Source: Amphiscolops sp. MND2022 (lineage: Eukaryota). From it: DNA of 64,000 bases. Location: assembly GCA_964187785.1 (NCBI GenBank), contig OZ076410.1, positions 53,630,001 to 53,694,000 on the forward strand, given 5' to 3'. The notes under the pieces are model-generated. The model did no database searches. It saw nothing but the letters and a program-made list of their open reading frames with translations, and had not been told where the DNA came from. Below are positions 10,597 to 63,822 of the stretch, piece by piece (position 1 is the first letter of the stretch; the number at the start of each line of letters is the position of its first letter). A program made the translations under genes and the position numbers.

Positions 10597-10777
10597 TACT
10601 CTGCAGTGTATTGGTTACGCTTATATTGTCGCTGAAATAAGATCACAAAATGAAGTCGCGAAAAGATTTCTTGAGAAATCATTTCAAAAGCTATTAATTA
10701 CTTCAAATTTCGTTTCTGAAACCTGTGTGTGTGGGGGGGGTTGAGGTTAGGAAATAGTTCTCTCATTCTCACATTCA

Positions 10778-16913: not shown

Positions 16914-17232
16914 CGTAGCGTCAAGCTAGCGGCGTGCATACTAGAGCTGGGATAATGTCTAGGTTGCCTTGACAAGAGACCATGGTACAACCATACTACA
17001 ACAAAGCGGTCTCCTTGGGGCTTTCTAACGTCGAAGAGGCTCCTCATTTAGAGCTCCGTGGGGACGTGCTGGCACTCTCAAAGTCCGGATACGTCCCACA
17101 AGCAGGTAAAAACGAATCCTTAGGTTCCTGCGACTTCCTACATAATCCCGAGGTCCAAAAGGGTATTTAGCTAAAGTACTTTCTATTAGAGAAAAATGAT
17201 GAAAATAAAGGATCTAACAGATCCGACATCAT
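16914..17232 (-). repeat. Truncated copy of the LTR-like family also at 24467-25170 and ~63175-63822
   Basis: Shares GGCACTCTCAAAGTCCGGA...CGACTTCCTACAT...GAGGTCC with both other copies. Confidence 0.75.
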
Positions 17233-17540: not shown

Positions 17541-18087
17541 TTTTTAGTCGGCGCTTTTCGAAGAAAAACGCAGACTATAGTAGTGACTTCTTTTTTTTTT
17601 AAGACCAACGAACTGACAGATTTTATAAAGAGTTATAAACAGCTGAGCTGACTTCACTGCACTAACAGTAACTGCAACGCTAGCTATCACTGCTGGCACT
17701 TGGCATAGAGGTTAATTAAGCTTTTTGAGGTCTGCCAAGCAGAAGGACGTGGGTTCGAGTCCCGTCCTTGATCAAATTTTTTGTGCAGGTTTTTTCGGCT
17801 TTGTGAGACTTTTTTCGCAAATTTTTTTAATGTCTCCAAAGGGTCCACCCTTCATTTTTCTTCTATTTTGCATAAGAATGGATGTTCAAAACCTCCCAGA
17901 GGGCCCCTTTTACAATTTTTCGGCACTATGCAACTTACCGGAGACCAAAAAATTTCGAAAAAAAATTCGGATTTTTTTAAATTTTTCCGCACGCGGGTAC
18001 TGTAGAGAGAATACTTGACACTTTGAAGTCCTTTTGCTATTTTTGAGCCTTAGATATGGCGCCGACTTGGGCCGTTCCCGGCTTGTT
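17541..18087 (+). mobile_element. Helentron-associated non-autonomous element (HINE/DINE-1-like)
   Basis: T-run followed by the subterminal inverted repeat AGTCGGCGC (17546) / GCGCCGACT (18059). 3' stem-loop GCCG-TTCC-CGGC then TTGTT. No TSD. Confidence 0.65.
17701..17762 (+). promoter_or_regulatory. Pol III type-2 internal promoter (tRNA-derived A and B boxes) inside the HINE
   Basis: A box TGGCATAGAGG, B box GGTTCGAGTCC ~40 nt downstream, T6 run shortly after. Confidence 0.65.
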
Positions 18088-18277
18088 TTGATTATCAATG
18101 AATTTTTAATGAGAAAATCGAATGAATATAAAAACTCAGTAGTATTACCAAATTTTACATTTTCACAGCTAAAAATTCACACCCAATTAAAACTAATTTA
18201 CATATCAGTTCTGGCATTAGCAAAACAAAATACATTAAGTTCTCAGTGGAACAACTTGTCAATGCATCGTTTCAAAT

Positions 18278-18654
18278 AACAAGCCGGGAACGGCCCAAGT
18301 CGGCGCCATATCTAAGGCTCAAAAAGACTCGTAAACCACTTTTTCTACAACTGGAGACAACAAAAGCTCTCAAAAAACTTAAAATTGAGAAAAAAAATTC
18401 CGAATTTTTTGCATTTTTTTCGAAGTTTCCGGTAAGTCGCATAGTGCCGAAAATTGTAAAAGGGGGGACGCTTTTTATCTCATGTTAGACGCTTTGGATG
18501 CGTTGAAAATGAAGTACTAAGTACATATGGTAAAAGTTGGTAAATGTGCATTAATTGCATTAATGCACAAAAAGTGGACGTTACGCGTTGAACTGACGAA
18601 AAAAAACTAGCCACTGTAAGAGTCGGGATTTTCTTCGAAAACGCCGACTAAAAA
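18278..18654 (-). mobile_element. Second HINE-like copy, tail-to-tail with the first
   Basis: The terminal ~48 bp is a perfect inverse of 18040-18087. 5' end TTTTTAGTCGGCG...CCGACT hairpin. Lacks the A/B boxes. Confidence 0.65.
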
Positions 18655-24466: not shown

Positions 24467-25170
24467 TGTAACGTCTACCTTGCAGCGTCCATCTTAGAAG
24501 TGGGACAATGTCTAGATTGCTTGAACAAGAGACCAGTGTCTTACTACAACCTAGACATTAGTTTTTGTTCCCAAAATAGTCTCCTAAGGGGACTTTTCAT
24601 ACGTCTAAGGAGACTCCTCTGTTAGAGCTCCGAGGCAAGGTGCCGGCACTCTCAAAGTCCGGACACGTCCCACAAGCCTGTAAAAACGAATCCTGGGTTC
24701 CTGCGACTTCCTACATACTCCCGAGGTCCGAAAACAGGCTTTAGCGAAAGCTCTTTCTATTAGGTTAATAGTATCTAAAATGAAATAATTAGGATTTAGT
24801 AGATCCGGTAACATCCCCAATCTGCTAAATAACATTCAAAACGACAAAAAATTAATTGAAATCAGTAGTTCCAGCATTCTCGCGAAGTCTTCTGGGTCTT
24901 CCAGGCGAACCTTCGAAAGGTTGCTTCTTTCTTCTGTGTCTTTTTAGACAATTTCTGGGGTAAGACGGTAAAACACTACGTTTTTCCATCGATTTTCAGC
25001 TTTTCTGGGTTCTCCGTCTGTCTTTTCTGGGCTTTCACAAGTTTGGGGGTCTTCTTTCGCGGTCTTCTTAAGTCTTTTTTTGAGTTCAGGGACCTGCCAG
25101 GTCGGCCATTTTGAATCGCACATTTTTTGACTTTTCATCGAATGTTTGGTACCAACTGGTTGACGTTACA
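24467..25170 (-). repeat. Full-length LTR-like element (704 bp), candidate 3' LTR of Gypsy-2
   Basis: TGTAACGTC...GACGTTACA 9-bp inverted termini. Homologous to 63175-63822 and 16914-17232. No TSD and no obvious PPT. Confidence 0.65.
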
Positions 25171-30189: not shown

Positions 30190-30875
30190 GGCAAGTAGTT
30201 TGCTCTAGTCTTGGGATGCCTGATCAACCTTTTACTTATGGTGTTGTTGGAGTTTTTGGATGATGGTGGTGCCAGGTGCTCAAAAAGAGCCCTTCCCTCC
30301 TGCCACACAGTACAGCGCAAGGGTCGGTGGGCCATACTGCTGCAAGAGCAATCATGGTCTATGGAGAGTGCTTCAAGCACAGTGATTGGCTTCTAAAGCG
30401 TGTAGGTATGCTGGTCCAAAATACGTATTTGCGCTTGTCGGCAGAAACTAATTGCCACTAATTAATGCCAATGTTGGCTGAAGGAAGTTTTCGCGATTTT
30501 TGTCCGCTAGGTGAAAGCAAAGAGTGGTGTTGAGTTGTACTAGAGTTCGCAAGTTTTCCAGGCAAATCAACAATGTGGTTGGTGATACAGGTGATACTTC
30601 ATCCAAAGAGGTGACTTGTGGCCACCAACCGTTGGTATAGGTCTCGTGACGGTGAAGCAAGGCGATATTGTTTCCATAATTGCTGTGCAGTGATGCAACA
30701 AACTATTGCCCTCTCGCCATCCTCTGGATCGATTTTTCCAAACACCATTGTGGGTGGTAGTGGAGGTGGGACAGCGGGTAATGTGAACTCGAGATCACTC
30801 CGGTCATGTCGCGTCCATTCTTTAAAACGATAGTTGAGACAATCGGAGGGAGAAGTGTAGTGCATCAATTTCAGT

Positions 30876-30881
30876 GTGGTT
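30876..30881 (+). repeat. Polinton target-site duplication, left (GTGGTT)
   Basis: Identical to 52354-52359. Confidence 0.92.
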
Positions 30882-30955
30882 AGAAGAATACAACTGCAAA
30901 TAAAACAGGTACCAATAACATTTATGAACCAGTTAACATTAAGACTATTAAACTA
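30882..30955 (+). repeat. Polinton left TIR
   Basis: AGAAGAATACAACTGCAAATAAAACAGGTACCAATAACATTTATGAACCAGT; 3 mismatches in 52 bp against the right TIR, weaker match for ~20 bp further. Confidence 0.88.
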
Positions 30956-31069
30956 TGAAAAAAAAACAAACCAAAGGTAGATTGATTGACGGAAAAAGTA
31001 AAGACGAGGACAATAATAGTTGTAGAAAAAAGTAGAAAAAAGGCTTTTTCCGGGAGGCAGGTGAAGGAG

Positions 31070-31962: not shown

Positions 31963-32444
31963 TCAAAAATTAGTGCTGATGAATCGCAAAATGTCTTCTT
32001 CTGTGGCATAAGCTGGAAAAGTGGAAAAGTCTAATAAAGTGTTATTCGTTTTCAATGATTGCTTAGTCCTATAAAAAAATGAGCAGTATAAACACAGTAT
32101 ATGCCACAGAGTTGACTTTCAACGGGTTGTAACATAGTTGAAGCTGGTATATATTGATGAATTTTTTGTTTGGTTGACTTTGTACATTCGTTCACTTTGT
32201 TGTATATTACTCCAAAAAACTGCTCAAAGTCTCGACCGAAGCTGTCATACAGTAAAACATTGTCGTTTTTTGATGCTATAAGTAGCCAATGTTCCCCTGG
32301 TTGGTTGAAGGCATTCGTAATAACAATATTAAACTGATTTGGCGACAATTTAGGGAAGGTGTCTCGTGAAAAACATCCTCGGAACTTGAATTTCAGCAAC
32401 GGGTCTTTGTTGATTAGGTCAGTCCTTTGAGTGTTGTCAACCAT
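31963..32444 (-). pseudogene. Adenain-like cysteine protease (Polinton PRO), frameshifted near the C-terminus
   Basis: FRGCFSRD..P, GEHW, YDSFG and Q..ESQLCGIYC catalytic motifs; C-terminal tail (FPAYATEEDILRFISTNF) in another frame. Confidence 0.88.
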
Positions 32445-33765
32445 TGTAAATGCTCGAATTCTTGATAACTTCCCAATTGCGATCGACCAACACGACGGAA
32501 CGCCTCTCACCCAACACAATGAGACGAATTGGTTTTGAAACAGCTTTTGAAAACTTGAGCTCCAGCCCCAGTTGTGCACCAGTGAGTTCTGGACGAATTG
32601 TGTTGTCTTCTATATGATAATCGGCAGTGAGTTTGAACACGAGACAGAAATGATTGCCAAAGTTGTCTAAGGGTATTCCATTCCCTCCATGCTCAAAACC
32701 TAATGATTTGAGCGTGTTAAAGTATGAACGAACCAAATTGTCGTTCAAGTGCATCGGTGTTGCGCCAACAAGCGCTCCTTCTCGGTTCAAGCGAAGTACT
32801 TCAAGATCCATTTGTTGAAAATGGAAAAGATTTGTCTCAAAATTCCCGCTGAAATTTGTTCCGGGAACCATGGACAAAACTGTAGGGGCACGATTGAAAA
32901 TGTCATCTCGGTAAAACATTGTTACTCCAGAAGAAATGAGAAATGATTTTGAAACTGTTTCTCGAAAGTCATAATGAGCTGTTTTCCTCGAAAACATTAG
33001 TTCAATTGTCAAATAAGTTTCGTTTTTTAACTCTACCTTGTGTACTAGTAGCGAGGCACTGACAATTTGAACGGACAAATCGGCTTGTGAGTCTTTCGAA
33101 ACATCGCTGTGCATCATAACAAACTGATCTGGCGCTCGATATAGTTTGACTCGTACCTCAACTCCAGCCAGCAAGAACTTGTGGTTGTCTGCTAGGAAGC
33201 TATCAGCAAGCCGCCCATATAAACTCCACTTTGACGTAAGTATTTCCCCGAGCTTTTTACCGTTGGAAAATGCTTCATCTGACACGTCACAAGGGTTATC
33301 TTCAAACTGATATCCCTGGCAACGCAACCAGCCCTCTTTACAAGAAGCGTTATGCGACAGTTCTGCCTCGACCAATGCCTTGTAGGGATCTAAATTGTTT
33401 GGTGAAGATACAGGTGCTCCGTTCAAAGAAATTTCTACGTTCTGAAATAGACTATGCATCAAATTGTTGACAAAAACGGGTTTCTTGTCTATTTCAAAGT
33501 CTGCTTCAGTTTCTTTTCCGGTATATTTCATTTTGACATCGAGTTTCAAAAACAAATTGACCAAATCTATCACTGTGCCACCAATATCAGTCTTGGATCC
33601 CTGGAAGTCAAATTCCAACACTGTCCCGTCAGCACTGTTGGGGGTGAATACTTCTTCATGATATCCTCGCTGAAAGTCGACTAGTATGTCGGATGCCCCA
33701 AATAAAGACAAACCGGAGTGCATTCCCGGTGTCGGTGGTTCTGAGTAAACAAATGTCTCGGGCAT
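32437..33765 (-). CDS. Polinton major capsid protein (double jelly-roll, PY), 442 aa, open ORF
   Basis: LSLF..DILVDF, VLEFDF, NNLMHSLFQNVEISLNG, PYKALVE, FLLAGVEVRVKLYR and FKLTAD; size and position are typical. Confidence 0.88.
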   Translation of the reverse strand: MPETFVYSEPPTPGMHSGLSLFGASDILVDFQRGYHEEVFTPNSADGTVLEFDFQGSKTDIGGTVIDLVNLFLKLDVKMKYTGKETEADFEIDKKPVFVNNLMHSLFQNVEISLNGAPVSSPNNLDPYKALVEAELSHNASCKEGWLRCQGYQFEDNPCDVSDEAFSNGKKLGEILTSKWSLYGRLADSFLADNHKFLLAGVEVRVKLYRAPDQFVMMHSDVSKDSQADLSVQIVSASLLVHKVELKNETYLTIELMFSRKTAHYDFRETVSKSFLISSGVTMFYRDDIFNRAPTVLSMVPGTNFSGNFETNLFHFQQMDLEVLRLNREGALVGATPMHLNDNLVRSYFNTLKSLGFEHGGNGIPLDNFGNHFCLVFKLTADYHIEDNTIRPELTGAQLGLELKFSKAVSKPIRLIVLGERRSVVLVDRNWEVIKNSSIYNG

Positions 33766-35489: not shown

Positions 35490-36450
35490 TTACTGAATTG
35501 TTAAGGTTATCGTATTCACTTTCAAAAAGATTAGAACAAAATTTTTTGATGACGCGACTGACTGCGATCTTGTAAATAATTGAACTGAGTAAGCTCGGGC
35601 TGATAGATTCGGCCTAAGATAGGTTCATTGTCAGAATCAAGCAGTTTGTATGTGACGGGACCCTTCTTGTACTGATGTACCTTGACAATTTTGAATACTT
35701 CACTCGTGTTTTGTTGCTTTTATTCTTTGCCGAATGGCATAACTTTGAGCGCGATACGAACACGATCCCCTACCTTGAAACGTTCAGCAGCCTGGTTGGT
35801 CTTCGTTTCTAACTTGGCTGTTTGCAGAGCGAGCAACTTTGGAACGTGTCGTTGTGTAACTTGACTCGCTGTTATGCCAATGGATCGGTTATACCTGTTA
35901 TTAACCAATTCAACAAACTTTTGCAAAAATAAGATGTATCTGAAAGTTCGACGCGCTTCGAAAAACTTGTGTAGGAGTGACTTTAGGGTTCGTATGTATC
36001 TTTCAGCCATGCAACTTTTGGTCTCACTGTAACTGTGATAAATTTCTATAGCATTGTTTGAACGAATTTTTGGGAATTCAACTTGAAATTCTTTGCCTTG
36101 ATCAACCCAAATTTTGATTGGAAAATCAAGTTTGTCAAAATTGATCATTTTTTTCAGTGCAGAAGTGGCAGCATTTGATGTCTTGTCTTTCAAGGGTTGC
36201 ACTTGATTTTTTCGAGAGAGAAAATCAACTGCAAGAAGCAAGTATTTGTAACCATCGTTGAACTTTTGCAGTTTTTCCATGTAAGCAACTTCAAGGGACC
36301 AAATATGATTGATTCCGAGGGCTATAACATGAGCCGCTGAAAACGTCGGCGTGAAGGTTTGAATTTTGTAAAAATTGGTGAGCTTTGTAGGTAAGCCAAA
36401 ACTTTTTTCTCGGTAGGTCGCTCGCTTTCACCAATTCTTAACACTACCGA
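35490..36450 (-). pseudogene. Polinton retroviral-like (rve) integrase, frameshifted
   Basis: YKYLLLAVDFLSR, IWVDQGKEF, SCMAERYIRTLK, NNRYNRSIG and FKVGDRVRI; core ORF 35720-36280. Confidence 0.9.
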
Positions 36451-37236
36451 AAGCAGCAGGATTTGAAAGGGAAGTGTAAATACCATGAAGTTTTCTATAT
36501 TCCGTTTCCGATAATGGTCGGTCATCTGCTTTTGATGGTGTCATCAGGGATGTTGCAATCTTTGTTGATGCAAGTTTCTGTTTATAATGTGACTCAAACA
36601 ATTTATGTTCACAATGAGGTTTCTGGCAAGCTGAACAGAATTGTGACTTTCCGCGGGGAACAGTATATTGAGAACTAAAAAATAACTTTCAGGAACTCTC
36701 TTCTGATAAATTTGCAAGTCTCGGCGAAATGTTCAAAAGTCTAAAGTTGTGTCCGTAGAACGACCGGTATACTCCTCAACTGAGCCGCTGGCTGACGGTA
36801 AGTTGAACGAAGATGTCGACGTGTTGAAGGTGATTTCTTCACACTGGATAAGTAGGTTCAAAACTCCTTGTATCCTGGTTTTTCGAGTCGACATAGCGGT
36901 TTTCTCGTCAATCGCTCGATGCCGTTTTTTCACAGGCAACCCTTGAACTTCAACAGAGTTTGCCACGTCCTGCAGCCAAGTTGTTGCAGCTGGATTGTCT
37001 GTAGTGCTACGTGATGACGCAATTTCTTTCTCAATTAATTTTGCTGGGTTGCTCACTGTTTTCGAGGGATTCTCTTCTAAACTCAATGCAGCATCGTCAT
37101 CACGCGCTGTTGATTGCTCCGATTTGCAATTATACTGGTTAAAAGGTTTTTCATAAATTGACAAAGGTATGAGGACAAATTCTTCCATTGACCGTTTAAG
37201 GAATTGAGGAAATGGTGATGGAGGACGCTCAATCAA
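36450..37236 (-). pseudogene. Polinton hypothetical protein between ATPase and integrase
   Basis: ORF 36733-37236 (MEEFVLIPLSIY from 37188), apparently continuing in another frame. Confidence 0.4.
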
Positions 37237-38461: not shown

Positions 38462-40431
38462 CTAATATGAAAACGAGAATAATTTGTGAGAAAAATATAT
38501 GAGAAACTCACGACCAACGATGTAATTGAAAAGAACCCACTGTTGATCGGTAGTTGCTTGTTTTGAATGCGAACCTTCAGTGTAGGTGGGATGAGATGTG
38601 ATCACTTCAACTAGAGTACTATCAGCAAAATCAAGATCTTTTGAATGTGATTGTATTTCCGATTCTGATAGTTCCAACCGTTTTGACTGTCTATTGATAT
38701 CGGCCGTTTTACAAGAAGTCGCAGAAAGATTTTTGTCGTAAATGTTTTCAGGCAATCTTGGAGGCGGTAATGAATAACCTAATGTTTAGCTCAAGAAGCT
38801 CTTATATAAAGACGTGTCTAGACACAATTGTTGGTCGGATTCCTCGCAGCCGGGGCTTTGCTTATATTCGTAAAAAACTTAATTTCAGTTAACAAAAGGT
38901 GTCCAAAATAACAATAACAGACAGCTGCGTGAGGTAGAGAATTTGAAATAATGGAGGCAGCTGTTTAACTACTTTGTTTCGGAAGATGGTGCCACTACCT
39001 CTGCTGCGCTCACAAAACTGCTCGTCCCCTGTACTCTCTTCGGATTTATGTTCTAGCACCCTAACATTGTTCACGGTTGTAAGCTGCAAGTCAGTGTTAG
39101 CATCTATGGAATTCGAATGACTAAGCGTTGCACAATCACCAGTAACTTTTAGAGAGTCTGATGTGGAAGGACAAAACATGTCATCCAACATCTGAAAAAG
39201 ATATGGTTAAAAAAATTGTCGCAAGCTTCATTCAATTTTATGCTTGTTTATTCTCGGCAAAGAATACGATGTTCTGGAGAAAAATGTTAGTTTGACACAA
39301 AGAGAAGCATTATAAAAGAAGCATGGACAACATCAAACATCATTTTTTTCTTTTTACAAAGATTGTTTCCTAAGTATTTTGATCAAGGAGTTGAGCCCTT
39401 TCTCCTTCGCCTGTAGCATAAACTCGTTCAGGAGGGTTGGCGCTATTTGGAGAGAGTCGCGTTGTAGAGAGGTTAATTTCTCTTTCTCTTTCGTCCTCGT
39501 CGTTTTCATACTCGCTCATTATTTCATCTTGATATTGAATCGGAAGGTGAGCAGGATCATCACTTTGTTCATCAAGTATGGACGGGAGAGCAAGGGTACT
39601 GTTGCTTGAAACCTCAGGTACAACTGCTGACATTGTCGGAGACCTGCTACCGTTGGTCGTTGAAACATTCGAGTTGTCAAGGCTCTGAGTGGGTTAGCGC
39701 CGAGTGTCAAAAAAATTGGTCATTGAAGTGTTTAGGTTATTTTGAGGTTGATTAGCATTTCCCAAGTGTTGATGCGAAGATGTAGCCCTTTCACTTTGTT
39801 GTTCTGCATATTGTCTTTGAATTTCTTGACTAGGCCAATTTCTGGGCTGAGTTGAACCAGGTACGTTATTCCAAACTGACGATTGGTTCATATAGGGTAA
39901 AAAAAGTGAGATGCGGAGTACTCAGTCTTGCATACGGGCGACCAACGTACCTAGTGTATTTGGGGTTTGTTTGATGAAAGACTGCATGACCACCGGACGG
40001 CAACGTAAACTTCGGAAGGTTTCCTGTAGAAGCAGTGTTTAAACTGGTTTTATAGTTTCCATTGTAAAAACTGGATGTCAAAGATTGCGAAGCTGTATGA
40101 TTTTGAATCGCCAATCCGTATCGCATCCTGCCGCCATCTGTCTGGGAGTTAGTATAATCTCTGAAAGGGAGATGTTCAGAGCAATGGGTGTACTTTGCAC
40201 CAAACAGCAGTATTCTTCCCAACTTATCTCAATACTATCTGCTCGCCTTGACCCAATCAATCCAGCACTACTGCATAAACTCTTTGTGGCATACCCTCTA
40301 CTGATTGTAACTCTGGGATACGACGTAGACTGCGTCGAATTATTCAAGTTGTTTTGATCGAGAGGCTGATTGGTGTTGGGAAAGTGAAATCCTAGTTGCA
40401 AGGTATTCGACAATAGTAAGAAGGCCGTCAA
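38462..40431 (-). pseudogene. Block of Polinton accessory ORF fragments of unknown function
   Basis: Seven short minus-strand ORFs, S/T/N/Q-rich; no motif recognised. Confidence 0.3.
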
Positions 40432-40518
40432 TTCCTCATTAAAGGCTTTCTCTTCGAGCCAATTTTACTTGAGTAGAGACTCACGGTATCTGAAAGCAGC
40501 ATAATGTCTACTTTTCAA

Positions 40519-41090
40519 TCAAAGAAAAAATATGAAACCAGTTATATGTCCCAACCAAAAACAAGCGTGTGTATAGCCTGGTCCTTTTTTGTGGACCTGA
40601 TACAAATGACCATGCGCATCGTGGAATACAGTGTGTAATTTTAAAATAGGGAATAACGGAGCCATCAAGGAGTGAGTTCGAACTGTTATCCCAGGTCCGA
40701 TAATCCCGCCCAAGGAGCTCTATGTGAGAATTCATTGCATTTGAGCAACTTGTTGAAAGCACACGAGGGGCAGATATTAATACATGAACATCTGTTAGTT
40801 TCAACCAGAAGCACGCTCACAAAAAGTATGTGATTAAAATACAACAGGGAACATACATACATGCCGGGAACAGCCACGTCGAGACGTAGGTTGAACATTG
40901 GAGAAATCAATCCTGAATCAGTTTCCGATTCAACGGTTTTCGCGGTTAATTCTTTGAGCACGTCGTTGTTGTGGTTAGTACAATGTTTATGGAGTTTTTT
41001 GACAAGTTCGTAAATTGATTCAATTTTCAAAAAAATTGAGCAGAACATACTGCATGTGACTGAATTTAAAAAGCAAACGACGATCCACAA
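40519..41090 (-). pseudogene. Phospholipase A2-like protein (parvoviral/adintoviral PLA2-type), frameshifted
   Basis: GGIIGPG (Ca-loop-like), LHTVFHDAHG (HD catalytic pair) and GPGY; Cys-rich N-terminal part in ORF 40686-41090. Confidence 0.5.
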
Positions 41091-41300
41091 AATTTGAAAA
41101 AAATTTAACTGTTCATCTCCAGGATGAGCTTAACATAAAAAGTAAAAACACTATTGTAAGTAAAACTATTCAAACTCAAGAGAACCGAAAACGAGACAAG
41201 ATATTCAATTATCTAACTTATTTATCTAAACAAGACGACAAGAAAACAAGACGACGAGAACGAATAATATAAAGCATGAAGTATGACAAAGTATAATTTT

Positions 41301-42148
41301 TCACCGACGTTCGTTTTCCCAGATGCAATGGAGTTCCCAGGTCACTTTTGGCCTCATTTTCGGTGCCCGTTTCGGGAAAAATTCTCGGTTTACGTAGTCG
41401 GTTGACTCCTTTTTCCAATCGTCGGCCATTTGTTTCTCGAAAATATTTCCATGCAACAGCGTGAAATTGTCGTTGGTACAGCCCCAGAAACTGCTCCAAA
41501 TTGAATAAGGACACCAAACATTGCGTTGTTGTACGTGAAATCCCCCAAATTCCTCTTTGTTTCTCAAAGTAGTCTGAAAGATCTGTTGAATTTTGCGGAC
41601 GGTGCTCTCCAATTCCCAATTCACCGCTGTCTCTCTGACCAAAAAGTGCGAGCCTCTTTTACTGAGTTGACATCCCTCCGCAATTACTCCACTCTTTTGC
41701 TTGTCTGAAGAAGTTTGTTGTTCACGATTATCGAGCTCGTATTTCAATATAGAATCGGAATCGCCCAGTTTTGTTGAACTTAACTCTTCATCGCATGGGT
41801 TTGCTTTCAGTTCCAGTTTAATTTTCTTGCTACTGTTACCTGGTTCAAGGTGTGACTCCTTACAGATTCCATCGTTTTTCTGTAGTTGTTCTGGAGGCAA
41901 AAACACTAGTATATGTAAATTATTTTCTGTGGCCGTGCTGTCTCGAGGATCTGGTAGAATGTAACACCTTCCTGAAGGAAAACGACCACTCTGCAAATAC
42001 GGTGACAAATCTTGAACACATTGAACACCGTCGTCCTTGAAACCACATTGTTTGTTGCAACAGAAGAGATGACCGCCAATAATAAAACCAGCACCCACAT
42101 CAGTCGAGAGTTTACGGATGCTGTTACGCACAAATAGGCATTGGGCAA
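41301..42148 (-). CDS. Polinton hypothetical protein (276-aa open segment)
   Basis: Long ORF directly downstream of pPolB; Cys-containing N-terminus; no family recognised. Confidence 0.45.
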
Positions 42149-42471
42149 CTGCTTTTTTCTCGAATTTTTGATTTGGATAGAAAACGAAATGACTGTATAG
42201 TAATGACGTTTTGCGTCTAAACTCTATGGGCGTTTTCTGAAAGCAAGCAACAATTAGTTAGGAAAGGACTATCTATGCATTTGTAATGTTTTGAAAAAGC
42301 ACCTGTTTGCTACCTTCGAACAACAAAAAAAATAAATTGGTAAAGAACTCTACTGAAAAGAAACGTAGATAAACAAATAAATATACTTTCGTCAAAGGCT
42401 ACTAAAATAAACAAAAGGCGCCGATACACCAGTTTTTTGTCGAGCACACGCTTATTGCTCGTCACACGAGC

Positions 42472-45400
42472 CTACTTTTCACAAAAGCGAGTTTTTATTT
42501 GACCAGTTTTCACACATCTACTCAAGGATGTGAAAGGACTTCTTAGCTCATGTGTTTCTCCAAGAATTAGTTTTTTGAAAGTGTCTGGGATGAAGGTTTT
42601 CTCCGTCGCCCTGTTTAGGGTGACACCTTTCACTTTGAAGACGTTGTATTCGAGGCCTGAGAAAACATTGTGTCCCGACAAGCAGTAAAATTTGGGACCG
42701 GCACTCCAGATTTTGTCGATTAAAACATCACCGGGAAGCTCATTCGTCATTTCACCCATAGCTGATCCCAAATGTATGTCCTGTACTCCATCAGATTTGT
42801 CATGCACGTACATTATGCTATCTGTGTCACAGTAGAGAATGTTTTTAGGATTTCGAACACATTGCATGTTTTCGTAAAGAATCACCCTTGCATGAGCTGT
42901 TGTGAACGCGGCCAGAATGACGTTGGTTTTTCTTGGCGAATCTGCGGCATCGTCAAGCAGCTGATTTTGCAGAAGCATCAAGTCGTCACCGACCAAAGTT
43001 GCATCAGTCACACGCTTGGTCCTGGATGTGAAGTACTCAACAACTTCACGGTAGTTGTTGGCGTATCTAGTTTTGGGCATGTTGTCTCTCATTCCCAAAT
43101 AACCCCAAAAACTATTCAATAAAATCTTGGCAATGAATCGGAGGCCTTCGTTTTTTTCAATACTGTTAGGGTCCAGCGTGATACCTTCTTGCGCCCGTAT
43201 GTCATCCAAATATTTCTTTTTGTGCAAGCACAGTGTTTCAACTAATCCAGTCTCTGTTTACCAACATCCTTCAGAGGGCCAAACAGATGCCTCCATCTTG
43301 ATTTTGAGGAAAGTGTCAATGTAATCTTTGAAGAGACTGGTGGATCGTTTGCACCGGGACCAGCTCCAAACTTCTGCCACATCAAGAACGCGATAACCTG
43401 TTTCAATGGCTTTTTTCAGTTCCGGAGTTGCAAATATACCCCAAAAACCTCGTTCTCTCGGTTTGAAATGATTACAGAGGTTAGAATTCAACTCCAAGCT
43501 TCGGTGATCTAAGACGTTGCTTCTCTCTTCAACACACCGCCTGCAAAGAGGAAAGAAAAGTTTTGATTGATACTTAAACGGTAAAATTGGTAGGTGGAGA
43601 TCAGAAGGAGGTAATACTTCGCACTTAATGAGGCCGAAGAAGTCCTCATTGAGAATTTTGTTTTCCACTATTATGTATACATATTGGGAAAATCTCAGAG
43701 CGGAAAAGTCCGTAACTGTTGTCTCCACTGCTTCATCTGTAATTTTTGCATCAGTTTCTTGTTGGTTTCTCGAAAAACGTAGAATTGTCTCGCCTTGTCC
43801 AAGGAACAGTATTTCGGTAACTTCATTTTTGTTGACAGGACACGAAGGCGAGTTTGGACCATCAGGTACTTGTGATGTTGCTTCAGCTTTTCCTCGATAA
43901 GTGACAAGGTGTCGTTGCTCAATTTCAATTAACACTTGATCAGGGTGACCAACTGGATACATGCACCGCGAGTTGACGTAAGGGTACAGGGAGCAGACGT
44001 CGACATAGCAGACAGTTTGTGATTCAGTTTGCCTTGACCAAAAATTCACAAAATCTTCCGTTCTTCCACCAACGAAGGCATCCGTAGGCTGTAGAGGCCT
44101 GTACCGTCTAGTTTCCGAGGAGCATTTAATCAACTGAAACAAATTCGTTGGTGTGTATAAGTCTCTTTCGTCCAATGTGTTTGATTTGGTAGAGCTGCTG
44201 ATCCTCTCCATCAACGTAGTGGGCAATGTGAAGTTCGTTGACTCCAACGACTCCGAAAATCCTGCTGGGCATGCATCATCAAATGCCTTCGCTTGAAGAA
44301 GTTGGTTCATTTCACACTCCCATATATGAAAGACACTTTGAACGTAGAACTCGAATTGGTCGGTTGTTGTGAATACTTTCTCAGTCTGGGTCTGTAGATG
44401 CAGCCAATTGAGTCGGTCCACAACAGTTGTTGTATATAAATCATGCATTGACATACCATTGCGTTTTTTGTTCATCTCAATCCGGTCAGATTAGCAAGTT
44501 GGACATCCATGATAATAGCACCCAAAAAATTCCAAAACAATGGAAGTATGTACCATTTTCTTGTGATTTTTTGAAGTTATGGCATTGTCAGAGTTTGTGT
44601 TGCTTCTCCTCAGAAGCAAAAGCCCATCCACTTTGAAGGAACCTAGTGTCTGTTCCTTTCCTCTGCCTTTTTTAGAGCCACCTCCGAATTTGTAAAGTCT
44701 CACTTCACAAAAAATCTGATTGGTTTCAAGAGTCTCCCAAGCAATTTTTTCGATCCAAGTCATCCATAAAGCAGCAGGAACTGAAGTTAGCTCATTTCCA
44801 GTGTAACCGTGATTCGGCAAAATCGCAATTGAGTTTTTTGGCATGAAAAGTTGCCTGTAGATGAAGTTACAGGCAGAAGCAGCGGTACATGCAACTTTGA
44901 AAGGATCTATTCCTCCGCAAGTAAAATTAATCATCCTGCGATATTCTAAAAACGTTCCTTCAAAAGCTTGACATCCGATTCACAGTAAGATATCAAGTCT
45001 TGTTCAAAATTGTAAGTTTTGGAGTTTTCTTTGTAGTATCGTTTCTGTTGTGTGTGCCATTCCAAAAATTTTGTGACAGTTTGTCCGCCTTTCATTGAGT
45101 TGATTGCGTACAGACATGCTGGAGGAAACTGCCCATGTTTGAAAGCAAAGTCATCGTCAACTGTATTACTGTGTGCCAGTGATGAGCTTGCAGTCGAGTT
45201 GCAAAAAAAGAGTTGCAACGACTACAATCTCTAGTTATAATTTGGCGGAGACTGCAATTTACTCATTTTACACAGTTTTGAAAGCTGTGAATTTTACCAC
45301 TGGAATCGGGATATAGCGCTTCTGAGGAAGTTAGATAGTGGGGGAAATACCCTTTCTTCAGTTCTCTTAGGTTGAATGTTGAAGTGAACTTGGATAAAGG

Positions 45401-47280
45401 GATAGGTATGAACAGATAGGAGTCAATAAACCTCTTGTTGCCCACTCGCATTGAAACCATTTTGTTACCTCTCAAGAGAAACTTGGGAATATACTTGTGC
45501 TGTTTGTATAACCATTCTAGAATTGGTAAAAAATCGAATCCACTTCCAAAATGAGCAATGAACCATTCCGTTTTTCGCACTCTTTCATGAGTACCAAATA
45601 CCGCTTGGCAAAATTTGCTGACACATTCGTATCCAACATACACAGTGTGTTCTCCAATCAAAGACTCATCAAGCAGCAAAATTGGTTTATGAACTCCTCG
45701 ATTGCCACAACTTTGATCTGTTTCAATATCGAAGGTCCAAATATCACGGTCGGGAGGTTTTTGATTTGAACGTCTAGCAAGGGAATCATGAACCTCTCAA
45801 TCATGTTTTACGGTGAGTTTTGCTTTTTTTGCCCCGATTGAGTTTCCATCCCCAACACTACTCTCCAGACCATCATTCTAACCAATCGCGTCCCTATGAA
45901 TGAATTGAAGGCTTGGACTGTCATTGTTAGTGTTTCCTTCGTACGCCATATCTGTCTGACTGCACTCTAATTTGGTCTTACAGTGCTGTTGAACGAAGCA
46001 CCGATGAATAGGAACCACTGCTCCACTGTTCTGCTTTCGGTCTGGAACGGGTAGTATTCGGAACATATGTCGCAGCGCTTTTTTGAACAAAAGTGATTGG
46101 AAAAAGCCCGTTTGGGAACAGTGTTGTTGCACAAGGGACACTGGGTGTACAAATGACAAACACCCGATCTGATATGACACTGCAAACAATTTAGACTGCG
46201 TAATTTCAAATGAAATCGATCACATTGGAATAAAACAGTCCCATTAACAAGACTTGCTGAGGTATTGATAAAACTTGTTCTGTTTAAACAGTCAGATTCT
46301 TTACAAATCATGCAACCACTAGCGGAACATAAGTGTTTGATTGTCGAAAAAGCACGGTGACAGCTGTAGCAGTAATGTCGAGCGTCAAACAAGCCCCTCA
46401 TTGATGTAATAACGTCCACATGGCAATTTGTGGCGTCATAAAGAAGATCAATGTGTTTTTCTGCAGTGATAATGTAGCACATCAGGAAAGTACCCATGAA
46501 GTTGCTGTCGTATACTGATATACAAAAAGGTCGTAGTGAAGATGTAGTGGCAAGATATTCGAGGTCTCGAAGAACCAGAGGTTTTGCAGGACCCAGGGCC
46601 TCCTCTGTTGATTCCGATCTCACTGAGACTGAAGTTGTGTTGTTCCTTGATAGCGAGACAGAAAAATTTATTGAAGACACAATGTTCTTCTCAGCATTCA
46701 TTCTCTGCATGAAAAGTTGCATCTCTCTAGTTTGCACGGAAGCGCGATCAAGGTGTAGGTTTTTCTTTCTGGTAGACTTTGATGATGACCTTTCTCCAAC
46801 TTTGAGAGCTATTGCAAGAGCTTTCAATAGACATTCGTTTTGTTCACTTTTAATCACAATCACAGATTTTTTTTGTTTGGTGAATTGCTTGATGTCGGGA
46901 ACCATTCTGTTTTGTATTCCACCTATCCGCTTTCCACCCATTGTAGGTAGGGATACGCTGAGAACATTGACTTTAATGTTGTTACTTATATCAAACGATT
47001 CATTCGAATTCACCACCCTATCTATTTCTTTCAGCACAATGTCTGCATCGAAATCTTCTGCAGGCGAAAAAGGAATATGAATGGGGTAATTCGAAGTGGG
47101 AGCGTTCAGAACCAATCGAATTCTGTGATCATGACCCGGAAGATCCTCTTGAGTTTCAGAAATCAGTGTGTTTATCATATGGTTGAATATTTCCCGTAAC
47201 TTGTCCAAAACGGTCTCAATTTTTGTGAAGTAAACTTCGTAATATCTACTAGCAGCATGCAACAGACTTCTCTGCGGCAT
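42472..47280 (-). pseudogene. polB: Protein-primed family B DNA polymerase (pPolB), split over at least 6 ORFs
   Basis: Exo I TFDIET, Exo II AHFGSGFD, Exo III YCESDV; motif A YVDVCSLYP, motif B KILLNSFWG, motif C YCDTDS; GPKFY and KVKG; VSR-like VDG..EFFGCYYHGCPTC insert; N-terminal OTU-like and Zn-finger region. Confidence 0.95.
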
Positions 47281-47624
47281 GCGATTAAACTATAAAAAAT
47301 TCTCTGGACTGAAAGCGGCCATTTATTAGCTGAAAAAGGAACAGGATGTTGATTGAGAGCAAGGTCCCAGAACGGTATTGTTGAGAAAAATACAAAACGA
47401 CAAGATGAATAACATGTAAAAAATTGAAATCAAACTACACAGTCACACAGTCACACAATAAATTTATACTTATTTGAGTAATAAAGTTAATATTATATGC
47501 AAAAAGTTGGTGAAACCATAATACAAAACGCGCTCGTTGGACTTGCGTTATTCATTTTCAATTTATCCGCTTCCTTCACAATCACCATAGTATTTGAACT
47601 AGTTCATGAAGACATCATCATTCT

Positions 47625-48260
47625 CTAACTCGTTGTCGTCTCGACAGCTTGGCCCATATCCATCTGGGTTTGTACGCGGTAGCCAACGTCGCACCCGCTC
47701 TCGAAACGTTTGTCTTCGTTCCCATGGTTGTGAATGTCTGCTTGGTGCTGAGAAACAATAGTGTGTTCGTCTCCACTATTGACCACCTTTGATGACGATG
47801 CTGCCTTGACAGTCCTTCTTTTTGCAGTCTGTGAGCTTGTTACAGGCCTGATCCCAATGGCTGCATTTTTAACAGTGTTCAAAAGCGATCGTTTTCTTTC
47901 CGACAAAAGATGCGACAGAACCGCTTGTGTCATCATTGTCTTTAACACAACACAACACAAAGCACTTTCGAGAAACCGATTGAATTCTTGAGGCACATTC
48001 TGACCAAATCCAGCAACCTCTACTGCGGCCTTGTCGCCCAAGCCTAAGCAAGTCGCAAAGCAGGTCAGTTCATCAATTGTGAAGGAGAAGTGACTTTGAC
48101 GGTTCCACTGACCACTATCAAAGTCTGGTTTGCATAGACCTAGACCAATGTATGTTGAAGGACCAGAACTGCTGGCATTGTCATATGTTTTGATACCTAC
48201 TCGGACCCAGCGATTGTGACTCATAGAAATGTCCCACCACTTGTCATGCGTACTTTCATC
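47625..48260 (-). CDS. Polinton ORF with possible PC4-like ssDNA-binding domain
   Basis: WDISMSHNRWVRV..TYIGLGLCK..GQWNRQSHFSFTIDELTCF fits a beta-beta-beta-beta-alpha PC4-like pattern. Confidence 0.35.
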   Translation of the reverse strand, partial: DESTHDKWWDISMSHNRWVRVGIKTYDNASSSGPSTYIGLGLCKPDFDSGQWNRQSHFSFTIDELTCFATCLGLGDKAAVEVAGFGQNVPQEFNRFLESALCCVVLKTMMTQAVLSHLLSERKRSLLNTVKNAAIGIRPVTSSQTAKRRTVKAASSSKVVNSGDEHTIVSQHQADIHNHGNEDKRFESGCDVGYRVQTQMDMGQAVETTTS

Positions 48261-48945
48261 TGCCTCCGGCGATATTTTCTATGAAGAGACCAGACATTTG
48301 TTGTCCGTGCCCGAGAAAGCAGACTTTCGCTCACGCTTTTGTTTCCGAACTAGTTGACAGCCAGTTCATTGTCATTTTTCAACTTCGATATCTGAAAAGT
48401 TGGAAACAACCTATTAGATACTATATGCTGGTTGTTTTATAGACGATTTCACCAGATTACAAGATTTTAAGTTCTGAAGTCTTCGATTCGCCTCTATATT
48501 TTTTTTGTGAACGCGTTCAGTCCTTCAACAAAGCTTACTGTTCAAACTTTTTGAATGGAAAAAGTGAGTATGTAGTGTTGACAAGGATCATAGTAAAAAA
48601 AGCAAAGTGAAAGACCACAAGAGCTACAAAGGAAACGAAGTTGACTTTTCTTTGCAACAAAAAAGAAATGTGGATGAAAAAAAATGAATTGATCCGGCTA
48701 TATTTCATAATGGAGCAGCAGTTATGAGCAGACTTCATCACAGCTAATTCAAACGATTTATTCAAACTAGTTCATGCGCAAAAAATGGTTTCTCGATTGT
48801 CAGTTTAGAAGCTTGAACAAGCGCTTTCCTTGCTTTCAACATCGGTTCTCTCTCGCTCTTCCTGTCCTCGGCAAATTCAAAATAGTAACCATCCAAAAGT
48901 TGTTGGGTGAATTCGTCTTCTCCAGTGAATCTGCTAAACACGTCG

Positions 48946-49640
48946 TCAGCTTGCTCTTGGTAATTTGAGATATTGGCAACATGTCTCTTTTAAAGTTTTA
49001 CGCTGGTTGAATACTTCCAGAAGCATCAAAGCTTCGCAAGCTTTGCCATAGTCGACTTTAACTGTGTACCACTGATCTCCTGCAATCGGCAGCACGTAGT
49101 CAAACATTCTGTTGTTGCAACCGAAGCCTAAAAGTGCTTGGTCCAGATCGATCGCCAGGATGAATTCCAAAACTCCCCTGTTGTTACCCCTCCGAACCAA
49201 GCATCATCAAGTTGATCCATCACTTCTTCAATTGGTAAAAACTTCACAGAGAAATCGTTCTTCGTCACAACATGTTGGGAAATATTCCACATGTAACGGA
49301 GGCCCGGCGAATTTGGAGACATTGTTTCCAAACCAAATGACAGCCGACTGTCTCCGAGAACAATTGCCGGATGATTCTCTGTTTTGATGAGAACTTTGAA
49401 CACACGAACACCTTTATTTAAATCTTGCGTAGACATTAAGTTGAATGTTCTAGCGGTACCTTCGTAATACATTTCATCGTCATCGTCAGAATCAAGCCTG
49501 TTGAATAAATTTTCGAAGTCAGCACGAACTTCCGATTGGTCAACCCCAACAACTGTGTTTTGGAAACCTCTTTTGTTATAAATATCCAGCCTTGCCGAAG
49601 TCTTCCATTCTACAGGCTCAGTGCGAGCAGTTGTACTCAA
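48946..49640 (-). pseudogene. First Polinton ORF downstream of the regulatory arrays, unknown function, frameshifted
   Basis: ORFs 49128-49640 and 48946-49200 overlap in different frames. Confidence 0.4.
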
Positions 49641-49908
49641 AAAACCATCGAAGCGACTGCGTTTTCTGATCTCCGCTTCTGTTTCAATGTCGGGCTATCT
49701 TAACAGGCGCACTCTGGCTTCACACCCAAGGAAAACGTCGCTGTCGTAATATGGAAAAACTCTGACGTGATGACACAAATTGACACAGCCTCGCTTAGAG
49801 TAATCATATAGATCTTGCTGGACAACTCGGTTGGAACTAAATTTTGCTACCTAAACGTCAAAGCTCTTATGTCACTTTCATAACAACTATAGAGGTGTTC
49901 AACAGGGA

Positions 49909-50485
49909 GCAGTAGGGTTGGTCAAAAAAGATTTTAGGTGTCAAAAACGTGTTTTTTCAACTTTTCAACGTTTTTATGCAATTTTGAGACAAAAAAAATT
50001 TTGACCAAAAAAATGTTTCCGTACCCTCGCATAACCCCTCACAGGGTGTACCGTATGCAGTAGGGTTGGGCAACAAAAATTTTTGGTGTCAAAAACGTGT
50101 TTGTTCAACTTTTTCAACGTTTTTATGCAATTTTGAGACAAAAAAAATTTTTGACCAAAAAAATTTTTCCGGACTATCACATCATCCCTCACAGGGGGTA
50201 CCCTATGAAGTAGGGTGGGGGAAAACAATTTGGCGTCAAAAACGTGTTTTTTTCAATTTTTTCAACGTTTTTATGCAATTTTGATACAAAAAAATTTTTG
50301 AACAAAAACATTTTTCCGGACCCTCACATCACCCCTCACATGGGGTACCCTATGCAGTAGGGTTGGGCAAAAAAAATTTTTGGAGTCAAAAACGTGTTTT
50401 TTCAACTTTTTCAACGTTTTTATGCAATTTTGAGACAAAAATTTTTGATCAAACCCTATGCAGTAGGGTTGGGCAAAAAAAGGTG
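49909..50485. repeat. ~148-bp tandem repeat, ~4 units
   Basis: Unit anchor G(C/A)AGTAGGGT at 49909, 50057, 50207, 50354 and 50460 (last unit shortened). Confidence 0.92.
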
Positions 50486-50549: not shown

Positions 50550-51117
50550 TTTTTCCCGCGCCGCGGGGGAAAAATTCAGTTGTTTGTAAGAAAGTTCAGG
50601 CTCAAAACTTTCCCGCGCGGCGCGGGAAAAGCTCAGTTGGGGTTGTGTGTTACAAAATCAAGGCACAAACATTTTCACGCGCGGCGCGGGAAATATTTAG
50701 ATGACTGTTTGTTATAAGTCTAGGCAGAAACTTTTTCCCGCGCGGCAAGGGAAATGTTTAGATGATTGTTTGTTATAAATCTAGGCAGAAATTTTTTCCC
50801 GCGCGGCGCGGGAAATCTTTAGTTGATTGTTTGTTAAAATTCTAGGCAGAAAATTTTTCCCGCGCGGCGCGGGAAATATTTAGATGATTGTTTGTTATAA
50901 ATCTAGGCAGAAACTTTTTTCCGCGCGGCGCGGAAAATATTTAGTTGATTGTTTGTTAATATTCTAGGCAGAAAAATTTTCCCGCGCGGCGCGGGTAATT
51001 CGAATGAAGGGATGCTTTCCCGCGCGGCGCGGGAAATTAAAATGAAGAGCTCTTCATTTTAATTTCCCGCGCCGCGCGGGAAAATGGTGCGACCTTTTCC
51101 CGCGCGGCGCGGGAAAT
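50550..51117. repeat. Array of palindromic TTTCCCGCGCGGCGCGGGAAA motifs, including ~61-bp tandem units
   Basis: 11 copies counted, six of them spaced ~61 bp apart; includes a perfect 68-bp palindrome at 51016-51083. Confidence 0.92.
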
Positions 51118-51133
51118 CCAGTTAAGAACGTTT

Positions 51134-51502
51134 TTAACTTATATTTCTATTAATATTGTACTCAACAGCGTGTCTGTTTTTCCAGACAAATATTAGTTTG
51201 AACGTTGTAAAATTAAGAAACTTACTACTCGGTGCAACCTTCTGGATATCGATTTCACAGTTTAGTTTTGAAAAAGTGCTTATGGAATGTCGCTCAGATC
51301 TTATATTAACCGTCATTTTTACGACAAATCTTACCTCGGTCAGAGAAGCTAGATCATTTTCATCGGGGTACACTGTCTCCTCTGGTGGCAGAACTGTTGC
51401 CAGATTCAGAATGGCCGAGTCTGATGTTGCAGAATCAATAACGCTGCAAAAAGTATTTTTGTATTTCAATACGTCTATTAGGCTCAATCGAGGAAAAAAC
51501 AA
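51134..51502 (-). CDS. Hypothetical 122-aa ORF between the two motif arrays
   Basis: Open ORF with a (GA)n tract upstream near 51865-51882; no motif recognised. Confidence 0.25.
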   Translation of the reverse strand: MFFPRLSLIDVLKYKNTFCSVIDSATSDSAILNLATVLPPEETVYPDENDLASLTEVRFVVKMTVNIRSERHSISTFSKLNCEIDIQKVAPSSKFLNFTTFKLIFVWKNRHAVEYNINRNIS

Positions 51503-52035
51503 AAAAATCCCAAAGTATTTGAAGAAACCAAACTCACATCGATAGCTCAGGGTCGTCTTCCGTTCGAGGTGTATTTAAAAGGCTCAAATCCAAGCTGCTG
51601 AGGGAGTTGCTGGTGCTGCTGATATCGTTGTTGAGAGACATTGTCTAATGTGGAATTTCAACTTAGATGTGCTACAATTTTGTTGATTAAGTTACAAAAA
51701 AATGCGAGTCAATTTCTGAACTATGTGTTTTCTAATTTTTTGAAACTCTAATCAACAACAATTTGCAGTTTATCTCGGTTGAAATCCCACTGTAGTTTTT
51801 GATCGAGAAATTGAGGTAGAGTTGGAGAGAAGAAAGAGAGAATCAAGTCAACTACTGGAGACAAAAGAGAGAGAGAGAGAGAAAGATTGTGGTAAAGAGA
51901 AAAGCGGTGAGTTCGAGCAAAGTGAGAGTGCGTTTAAACGTTAGCAAGAAAGGTGAAGTACTGAGCTGTTGTAGCGTTTGATTACTCTATGTAGTTCGTA
52001 GCTCAAATTCAATTAGTTGATAAGAAACGACAAAA

Positions 52036-52228
52036 TTTTTCCCGCACGGCGCGGAAAAATATTTGCTAGTGCGGATAAATTCCCGCGCGGCGCGGGAATT
52101 TGCTGTTCGGGCAAACAATTTTCCGCGCCGCGCAGGAAATTGTTGTTCGTGTGTATTATTGATTCATTTTGTTACTCATAAAAGCCATTATGCCGTAGTA
52201 GTACACATCCCCGCGCCGCGCTGGAAAT
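52036..52228. repeat. Second cluster of the same palindromic motif (4 degenerate copies)
   Basis: Copies at ~52036, ~52079, ~52119 and ~52209. Confidence 0.85.
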
Positions 52229-52279: not shown

Positions 52280-52353
52280 AAATTGTTTATTAGCCTTTTA
52301 TACTGGTTCATAAATGTTATTAGTACCTGGTTTATTCGCAGTTGTATTCTTCT
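52280..52353 (-). repeat. Polinton right TIR
   Basis: Ends ...GCAGTTGTATTCTTCT and is followed by the TSD GTGGTT. Confidence 0.88.
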
Positions 52354-52359
52354 GTGGTT
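52354..52359 (+). repeat. Polinton target-site duplication, right (GTGGTT)
   Basis: Identical to 30876-30881. Confidence 0.92.
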
Positions 52360-53149
52360 TCTAGTGGTGGTACCACTCCTCGTTCTTTGCTGTCGTACGT
52401 TTTCTCCACGGTGATTACAACGTGGTGCACTAAGGGAGAAACGTATTTCTTCTCCATTGAATTGCTAGGATTGCATATCGCGGGTGGCTGTGTCCAGGTG
52501 CTCGCGTAGTTAAGGGTTCGCAGGCAGGGTCGTTCACTCCCCGGGCCAATCGATGGTCCGGTGTTTCGCTCATGACTAGATTGACACAACTGCAGTCACG
52601 GGAACCGCAGGTTCCACACCTGTATCGTGGTGCTCTGTTTCTTCTCAACTGATAACGTTGTGTTTGCGAACGGGTTGCCTGTTCAGTATTTTGCTGGGTT
52701 GATGATTGGCTCTCTGGAATGTTGAGTAAGTTCATTGCTCGTTCCAGAGTTCCTGCGTGACGGAGCTCTGGTCCTGGTCCTGGTTCGAGTTCTCGGGCCT
52801 CTTCTTGACCTGGCTGCTGGTCCTCTCCAGGTCGCGGTGGTCTTACTTTAGGAATTGCTACTTCCCCTTTTGCGGCCTGGTGGCTGGCCTCTTGGTCGAC
52901 CTCTTCTGTGTGTTGCTCTGTCTGGTGTCGGTGACTGGGTTGGTATCAGGGACTTGGTCATCCGCGTTAATATCTTCCTGTAGTTCGTTCAGGGGGCTGT
53001 GGGTCTTTAGTGCTCCCAAGTTGGGAACTGAATAGTGGAAGTTACTGAGAGTATCGGCTAGGGATGGGGAAACTTGTCTGGTTAGTTCTAACTCGAACAA
53101 TGCCTATGACAGCTGTTCCGGCAGGAAAGAGTCTCGCGAGATGTCAGAC

Positions 53150-63174: not shown

Positions 63175-63822
63175 TTTCGTTCCAGATATCCGAAACATGC
63201 AGGAAACGCAAGAATTCTGTTAGAAGGGAGCCTAATAGGCTTGACTAAGGCAATGTGCCGGCTCTCCGGGGCAAAGCTCCGAGGAAATGTGCCGGCACTC
63301 TCAAAATACGGACACGTCCCGCAAGCCTGTAAAAACGAATCCGGGTTCCTGTGACTTCCTACATACTCTCGAGGTCCGAAAACATGTATCTAGCAAAAGT
63401 TCATTCTATTAGGTTAATAGTAACTAAAACGACAAATTGGAATCTAGTAGATCCGGTACCATCACCAATATCCTAAATAACATTCAAAACGACAAAATTA
63501 ATTGAAATCAAAACTTTCAGCATTCTCACAAAGTTTTCTGTGTGTTCCGGGCGAACCGTCGAAAGGTTGCTTTGTTCTTTTGAGTCTTTTCAGACGTTTC
63601 CTGGGGTTAGACGGAAGAACACCATGTTTTTCCGTCGATCTTCGGCTTTTCTGGCTTTTGTGTCTGTCTTTTCTGCGCTTTCATGGGTTCCGGGGTCTTC
63701 TTTTGCGGTCTTCTTGCGTCTTTTTTGATTTCAGGGACTCTTTGCAAAGACACTCGCATGGTTCACCTGGCGATTTAATTTTCTGGGAGATTTTGACTTC
63801 AGATTTTCAAACTTACTGACGC
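63175..63822 (-). repeat. LTR-like copy, candidate 5' LTR of Gypsy-2
   Basis: Roughly 85-90% identical by eye to 24640-25100 over the core; termini degraded; no PBS found. Confidence 0.55.

Follow-up and report, generated by a model that had tools for sequence, protein, structure and literature searches.

Which trigger, and which cell type, allows an animal Polinton to leave its host genome is an open question, and the literature we searched describes no cis-regulatory array for these elements. The locus analyzed here raises that question in concrete form: In a 64-kb stretch of an Amphiscolops sp. contig (OZ076410.1; 64,000 nucleotides, hereafter the window), a palindromic 21-bp sequence recurs near one end of a Polinton. 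We ask what these repeats are, how they multiplied, what might bind them, and which gene they might control.

The element spans 30882–52353 on the minus strand (21,472 bp) and is a Polinton/Maverick. Its terminal inverted repeats (TIRs; left, 30882–30956, plus strand; right, 52282–52353, minus strand) agree over 52 nt at 94% and over 76 nt at 85.5%; the ends read AGAAGA and TCTTCT, and the target duplication GTGGTT stands on either side. TIRs with AG...CT ends, a 6-bp duplication, PolB, integrase, capsid, protease, and an ATPase remnant are all present, and by these features the element falls under the Polinton/Maverick description in the part of PMC8097293 used here. The first-pass annotation had placed the sites inside a Polinton near one terminus, and the TIRs, the duplication, and the genes bear this out.

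The protein-primed PolB gene (42433–47322, minus strand) matches PF03175 above the cut-off and is broken, with three frame changes relative to the intact sister P0121. The retroviral-type integrase (35525–36544, minus strand; PF00665, E = 3.5e-6, under the curated cut-off) is likewise broken; its sisters are 341 aa long. An open frame encodes the double jelly-roll (DJR) major capsid protein (32437–33765, minus strand), which has 33 homologs and Atlas values of 0.97–0.98 to DJR-like clusters. The adenain-like protease (32052–32609, minus strand) has a sister, P0053, that matches PF00770 at E = 4.4e-4, just under the cut-off, and the packaging ATPase persists as a remnant with a weak AAA match (E = 0.008). 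Directly upstream of PolB lies a weak PC4/Pur-alpha-like ORF (47625–48278, minus strand) whose best fold matches are PC4 and Pur-alpha (E at least 0.05). Frames that received no Pfam or PHROG name include one of 318 codons at 41301–42257 (minus strand) and, in the stretch from PolB to the ATPase remnant, various fragments (38900–41130, minus strand), some with splice-like signals.

This copy shows decay: The TIRs differ at 3 of 52 positions, and PolB, at 89–93% identity to P0121, has the three frame changes noted above. One PolB frame change is not shared by P0119, apparently another assembly of the same locus. Protein clusters place close sisters on several other contigs; no sister locus was recovered from metagenome contigs, or from viral contigs when the queries were the capsid, PolB P0100, and alignments of PolB and of the capsid. 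The Polinton sits within a Ty3/gypsy-type retroelement with reverse transcriptase and RNase H matches at 55–57 kb. Retroelement open frames at 30599–30881 and 52354–52589 (minus strand) abut both Polinton ends, consistent with one interrupted frame, and 469-bp direct repeats of 85% identity (24626–25093 and 63275–63738) bracket the block formed by the gypsy element and the Polinton; part of a third copy lies at 16915–17189, and the repeats may be a dispersed family or old LTRs. The window also contains three TIR-bearing host elements, one long-TIR DNA transposon-like and two MITE-like (1172–4443, 17904–18465, and 10169–10599), an open frame with a weak rhodopsin-family receptor match (12917–13762, minus strand; E = 6e-7, just under the cut-off), and a second receptor-like fragment without a Pfam match (10778–11251). 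The rhodopsin-family frame, together with the spliceosomal introns predicted below, indicates an animal host.

Fifteen copies of the 21-bp motif occur in the window at three or fewer mismatches, six of them perfect; 100 shuffles yielded none, and outside the array the best match in the window carries seven mismatches. Eleven sites form an inner cluster (50552–51116) and four palindromic sites an outer one (52038–52227), 126 bp inside the terminus. The first-pass annotation was thus right in its counts and coordinates, and also in setting the array at the end from which the genes are transcribed: Every gene identified reads from there, on the minus strand. Its spacing of about 61 bp in part of the array likewise held, with five consecutive intervals of exactly 61 bp between 50673 and 50978; the remaining intervals are 57, 64, 38, 47, 33, 942, 41, 40, and 88 bp. 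The array is strongly nonrandom, sub-terminal, and located in a bona fide Polinton.

The arrangement of the sites records how the array was assembled. Within the inner cluster, eight sites lie in ~61-bp tandem units (50552–50999), two make up a perfect 68-bp palindrome (51016–51083), and one stands singly; Tandem Repeats Finder reports the 61-bp unit in 6.4 copies at 50609–50999. In the outer cluster, three sites build a nested palindrome of ~124 bp (52027–52150). Together, the tandem units and the higher-order palindromes indicate that the array grew by tandem and inverted duplication. A separate 148-bp A/T-tract unit, in 3.6 copies (49909–50453 by Tandem Repeats Finder; 49909–50481 as a feature), adjoins the inner cluster, has no clear ends, and contains no copy of the 21-mer. 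As a separate observation, the 68-bp palindrome, with its 32-bp stem, is as large as a pre-miRNA and lies within a predicted intron. A sigma-70 promoter scan, irrelevant to a eukaryote, gave chance-level results and was set aside; six of its eight terminator-like matches were the motif itself.

The motif is an odd palindrome: a 10-bp arm, a single G or C, and a second 10-bp arm. That centre base is G or C in 15/15 sites. The central 5 bp are no less conserved than the octamers (mismatches at 1/75 versus 15/240 positions), so in the description of two inverted octamers 5 bp apart the supposed spacer is instead part of a symmetric, conserved 21-bp unit. Sixteen of the 30 half-sites are intact 10-mers. 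Across all 15 sites, 16/300 positions are mismatched, against about nine estimated from ~3% decay per copy; this excess suggests that some of the variation probably predates the Polinton insertion.

Pattern scans for the motif returned 0, 1, and 0 stretches in viral contigs, 24 in metagenome contigs, and 23 in prokaryote genomes. A second site at three or fewer mismatches is absent from all 48 loci; four have one at 4 mismatches but at least 500 bp off, and three Polinton proteins compared with the loci found no encoded counterpart in any of them. We regard these matches as due to chance. A screen of sister arrays for ORFs called there spuriously gave six candidates, none at E ≤ 10.

Conservation of the unit is clearest between contexts. 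In six representative contexts, chosen by the analyst with one site per context, the core is 87% identical, whereas the flanks are 30% identical, compared with 31% for random local DNA. Inside the tandem family the picture differs: Across five 61-bp units the core shows 5/105 changes and the spacer 15/200, no clear difference in conservation. Short palindromes can multiply in the absence of selection, and the array could in principle be a product of neutral amplification, a GC-rich palindrome promoting slippage and template switching and so multiplying without function. The evident tandem and inverted duplications and the similar divergence of core and spacer within the tandem units suit this account, yet a core at 87% amid flanks at the random level in six contexts is hard to obtain by drift unless the 21-mer alone was copied each time. 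We consider neutral amplification improbable.

The same symmetry raises the question of whether the palindromes act as single-stranded DNA or RNA rather than as duplex protein sites, for example as a replication pause, a packaging or processing signal near the terminus, or long intronic hairpins that supply small-RNA pathways. The folding energy of intact 21-mers is about −9 to −10 kcal/mol, and the higher-order palindromes fold strongly (z = −5.3 for the outer and −11 for the inner). Two sites, 50917 and 52079, carry symmetric double changes that keep the palindrome while breaking the classical E2F match on both sides, and the array lies at one end only, like the adenoviral packaging region. 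The single sites are less striking, with fold z scores between −1.8 and −2.7, and at the outermost site just −0.15, and all 12 Rfam matches fall far under their gathering scores. Symmetric changes can also arise from template switching without selection. A hairpin, moreover, needs neither a fixed sequence nor centre-base symmetry, yet both are kept: The symmetry extends to the centre base, nearer than a hairpin loop could pair (the loop has 3 nt in the computed fold), in keeping with a dimer bound to duplex DNA. Structural roles of these kinds, taken jointly, therefore seem to us rather unlikely.

A further possibility is that the repeats were brought in from outside the element. The first-pass annotation had offered, as its alternative, binding sites of an unrelated inserted element with its own TIRs and target duplication, and neither TIRs nor a credible target duplication mark the array as a separate cut-and-paste insertion. 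Around it we found only motif self-matches, two 11-bp A/T-tract pairs, and three direct matches of 6–7 bp, by estimate about the number expected by chance; a 7-bp direct match flanking both arrays was judged to be one of chance.

Insertion by another route is conceivable if the units are Helitron-type 3' ends, a GC hairpin followed by CTRR, or another host repeat, expanded here along with the 148-bp array. Helitron 3' ends carry a 16–20-bp palindrome 10–12 bp ahead of CTRR, according to the portion of PMC3288121 consulted. In the array, CTAG follows the GC-rich palindrome at 8/15 sites, 10–13 nt past the 15-bp GC core (7–10 nt past the full palindrome), and CTRR at 9/15, over backgrounds of 3% and 18%, respectively, with a second tandem array adjoining. 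However, six of the eight CTAG sites belong to one tandem family and two share a single CTAG, which leaves about two independent cases; the T that follows CTRR in the Helitron pattern is present in only 1/9, and six sites lack CTRR altogether. Nothing similar to either unit was found in the rest of the window (best E = 0.09 for the 148-bp unit and 0.87 for the 61-bp unit), and because the motif flanks the predicted exons described below on either side, two insertions would be needed. We give this origin little weight, about as much as the structural roles.

The conserved core amid random-like flanks, the missing TIRs and duplication around the array, and the motif on both exon sides instead suggest that the 21-mer is a retained unit native to the element. 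We hold this with moderate confidence as part of a wider reading, in which a dimeric factor would bind the 21-mers, these have been multiplied through tandem and inverted duplication, and together they would control the first transcription unit. What that unit encodes and how it is arranged around the sites thus become central.

The first gene is SPRY/SOCS-box-like. Its main exon (48762–49850, minus strand), interrupted by a stop and two frame changes, would encode an SPSB-like ubiquitin-ligase adaptor, as indicated by homologs, Atlas placement, and fold. A representative search with this frame gave 16 matches, 12 judged relatives and four unrelated long proteins, and the Atlas places sister P0128 at 0.96, beside SPRY/SOCS clusters. 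The SPRY fold is recovered at E ~4e-6 from a structural model whose confidence is low overall (mean pLDDT 48) and better in the core. Pfam detected no SPRY domain, and when solved structures were searched by sequence with the SPRY alignment as query, a single match at E = 1.3 resulted. SPSB1 and GUSTAVUS are among the fold matches, with TRIM and ASH2L SPRY domains ranking above them. In one SPRY cluster, 4/6 members lie on contigs equal in size to contigs that bear Polinton capsids; among the members listed, the other two and the closest relatives, P0127 and P0143, have no such contig match. The gene may have arisen by capture of a Cullin-ligase adaptor.

Similarity between the SPRY protein and its homologs ends at 49850–49844 with no start codon nearby in that frame, so upstream exons are needed. 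We predict coding exon 1 at 51538–51641 (minus strand; ATG to a GT donor, phase 2) and exon 2 at 51335–51443 (minus strand; ending in phase 0, in agreement with an acceptor at 49850). Between them would lie a 94-nt intron, followed by a 1,484-nt intron (51334–49851), both with canonical splice signals. Exon 1 has no homolog found; exact look-up of its ORF and of two ORFs of the 148-bp array showed all three absent from the protein collection.

On this exon model the 21-mer sites flank predicted exons 1 and 2 on both sides, the 11-site cluster is probably intronic in the first gene, and the 148-bp array would occupy the same predicted intron. The idea of an array upstream of the whole gene cassette can hence apply at best to the four outer sites; for the inner cluster it gives way to the predicted 1,484-nt intron. 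Even the outer sites may be transcribed, given that the right TIR has a TATAAA at its inner end (52302–52297, minus strand; missing in the left copy) and that there is a pyrimidine tract ending in an acceptor-like AG (51855–51905, minus strand), possibly the mark of a leader intron or a trans-splice acceptor.

Among binders that can be named, E2F/DP is the strongest candidate. The classical site is TTTC[CG]CGC, with a SELEX-preferred GGCGGG core and A/T flanks, in the part of PMC4686757 used here. The half-site matches this consensus, as the first-pass annotation held: 17/30 halves fit, and an A/T-rich flank lies outside the core, as in E2F structures. The match is uneven, however, with 16/22 halves agreeing with TTTSSCGC in the inner cluster and 1/8 in the outer. 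Outside the array the octamer occurs four times, with about seven expected for the whole window. In SELEX, E2F/DP and E2F8 prefer a GGCGGG core, which is present in 0/15 sites. The E2F4/DP2 crystal DNA is 13 bp long (PMC4686757, same part), and two such footprints in 21 bp overlap by 5 bp; both halves may therefore not be filled at once, or the pair may be cooperative. Flies, according to the section of PMC4362205 consulted, have no E2F7/8-type factors.

Adintoviruses carry Rb-binding Oncoids upstream of PolB, as described in PMC8502044. A minus-strand scan with patterns from that paper gave two LxCxE and three CR1 matches, none of them credible: None has a CK2 site within eight residues after it, and none falls within a frame that has homolog support as an Oncoid. 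Decay of the element may hide one. A near-LxCxE peptide in the open frame 49860–49905 was rejected, having one extra residue and no homolog support and falling in the predicted intron.

The E2F-responsive switch of the first-pass annotation is plausible and fits only in part. In its favor are the 17 consensus halves and the A/T flanks; against it stand the absent GGCGGG core, the poor outer cluster, the overlapping footprints, the lack of an Oncoid, the conservation of the 21-mer as a whole, and the probably intronic position of most sites. Judged from these motif matches, E2F/DP is a tentative assignment as binder; the E2F family is the likeliest single candidate, and another host or viral homodimer is almost as likely.

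A different host factor enters if the sites are methylated, since methylated GCGGGA mimics the site of the Notch effector CSL/RBP-J. The motif GCGGGA, counted by eye, is present in 19/30 halves, and RBP-J binds its methylated form in vitro (PMC3185043); the same paper reports finding no sign of this in vivo. The sequence CGTGGGAA occurs in 0/15 sites. CpG observed/expected is 0.76–0.96 across the window and 1.79 in the array, with little sign of methylation decay, which argues against heavy methylation and a methyl-dependent reading by RBP-J. We regard this explanation as very improbable.

Returning to the favored reading, the 21-mer would be a dyad-symmetric binding site native to this Polinton lineage and multiplied in place into 61-bp tandem units and, by inverted duplication, into the 68- and 124-bp palindromes, with the sites kept while their flanks diverged. 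A dimeric or doubly loaded DNA-binding factor would sit on these sites, which jointly might form an enhancer or silencer block around the promoter and in the intron of the first transcription unit, leading to the SPRY/SOCS-box-like adaptor. If the factor is a host E2F-family complex, Rb/DREAM-type repression in resting cells and release in cycling cells would be expected.

A bolder version, which we think unlikely, is that multiplied head-to-head E2F elements let the Polinton lineage sense the host cell cycle. The integrated virus would be silenced by Rb/DREAM-type complexes, free E2F in cycling stem or germ cells would turn on a spliced immediate-early gene, and the SPRY/SOCS-box product would degrade a host silencing or sensing protein. 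Were this true, the Polinton would have a latency switch that draws directly on host E2F, and a captured ubiquitin-ligase adaptor would take the place that E1A and E4orf6 hold in adenoviruses.

Because both the 21-bp element and the neighboring first gene are defined, short oligonucleotides and reporters could be used to ask what activates Polintons. If E2F binds, a mechanistic link would follow to adenovirus-style cell-cycle control and to the amplification of E2F sites by plant transposons; without E2F binding, the site would still indicate some other, as yet unnamed dimeric factor. Separately, the SPRY/SOCS-box-like accessory gene offers a way into the question of how these elements counter host defence.

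Known systems supply several partial likenesses. Baculovirus hr regions and EBV oriP combine imperfect palindromes, ~60-bp direct repeats, and a large and a small cluster ~0.9 kb apart, as here; they bind a known viral dimer and serve as origin and enhancer. The present element differs in its protein-primed replication, which starts at termini, and neither Pfam nor PHROGs names a viral duplex-binding candidate in it. In the adenovirus E2 early promoter, paired E2F sites lie about 16–17 bp apart. The array shares inverted E2F-like half-sites with T-tracts outward, and it differs in having 15 pairs rather than one or two sites, at much closer spacing, and in that no E1A-like LxCxE protein was found. 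A control block beside the terminal repeat, ahead of a spliced first gene (here predicted), also recalls the adenovirus E1A/E2 arrangement, with the left-end E1A enhancer region described in the part of PMC13027316 consulted.

Against other Polintons, the element agrees with the portions of PMC8097293 and, for adintoviruses, PMC8502044 drawn on here in size, short TIRs, 6-bp duplication, PolB, integrase, capsid, protease, ATPase-like remnant, and accessory genes upstream of PolB. Its end motif is AGAAGA, compared with the two vertebrate motifs (AG)3 or (AGT)2, and introns are predicted in its accessory gene, whereas intact vertebrate Polintons are described there as intronless. The SPRY/SOCS-box-like gene stands at the place where those portions of PMC8502044 describe Oncoids. 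Our literature search, with most subscription papers and Repbase records and all supplements outside its scope, found no report of a sub-terminal palindrome array or a SPRY/SOCS-box gene in Polintons; gene maps in the PMC8502044 supplements may bear on the novelty of both.

The nearest parallel for the multiplication itself comes from plants. Brassicaceae MITEs amplify E2F sites that are bound in vivo (Henaff 2014, as cited in parts of PMC7329337 and PMC5950925), and, like this element, they carry many copies of one E2F-consensus variant, with a proposed aid to replication or transposition. Those MITEs are nonautonomous; the Polinton encodes a capsid, lacks MITE ends, and carries paired inverted half-sites whose binding is putative. 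By analogy, the array would work most like the amplified E2F sites of plant MITEs and the terminal enhancer blocks of viruses.
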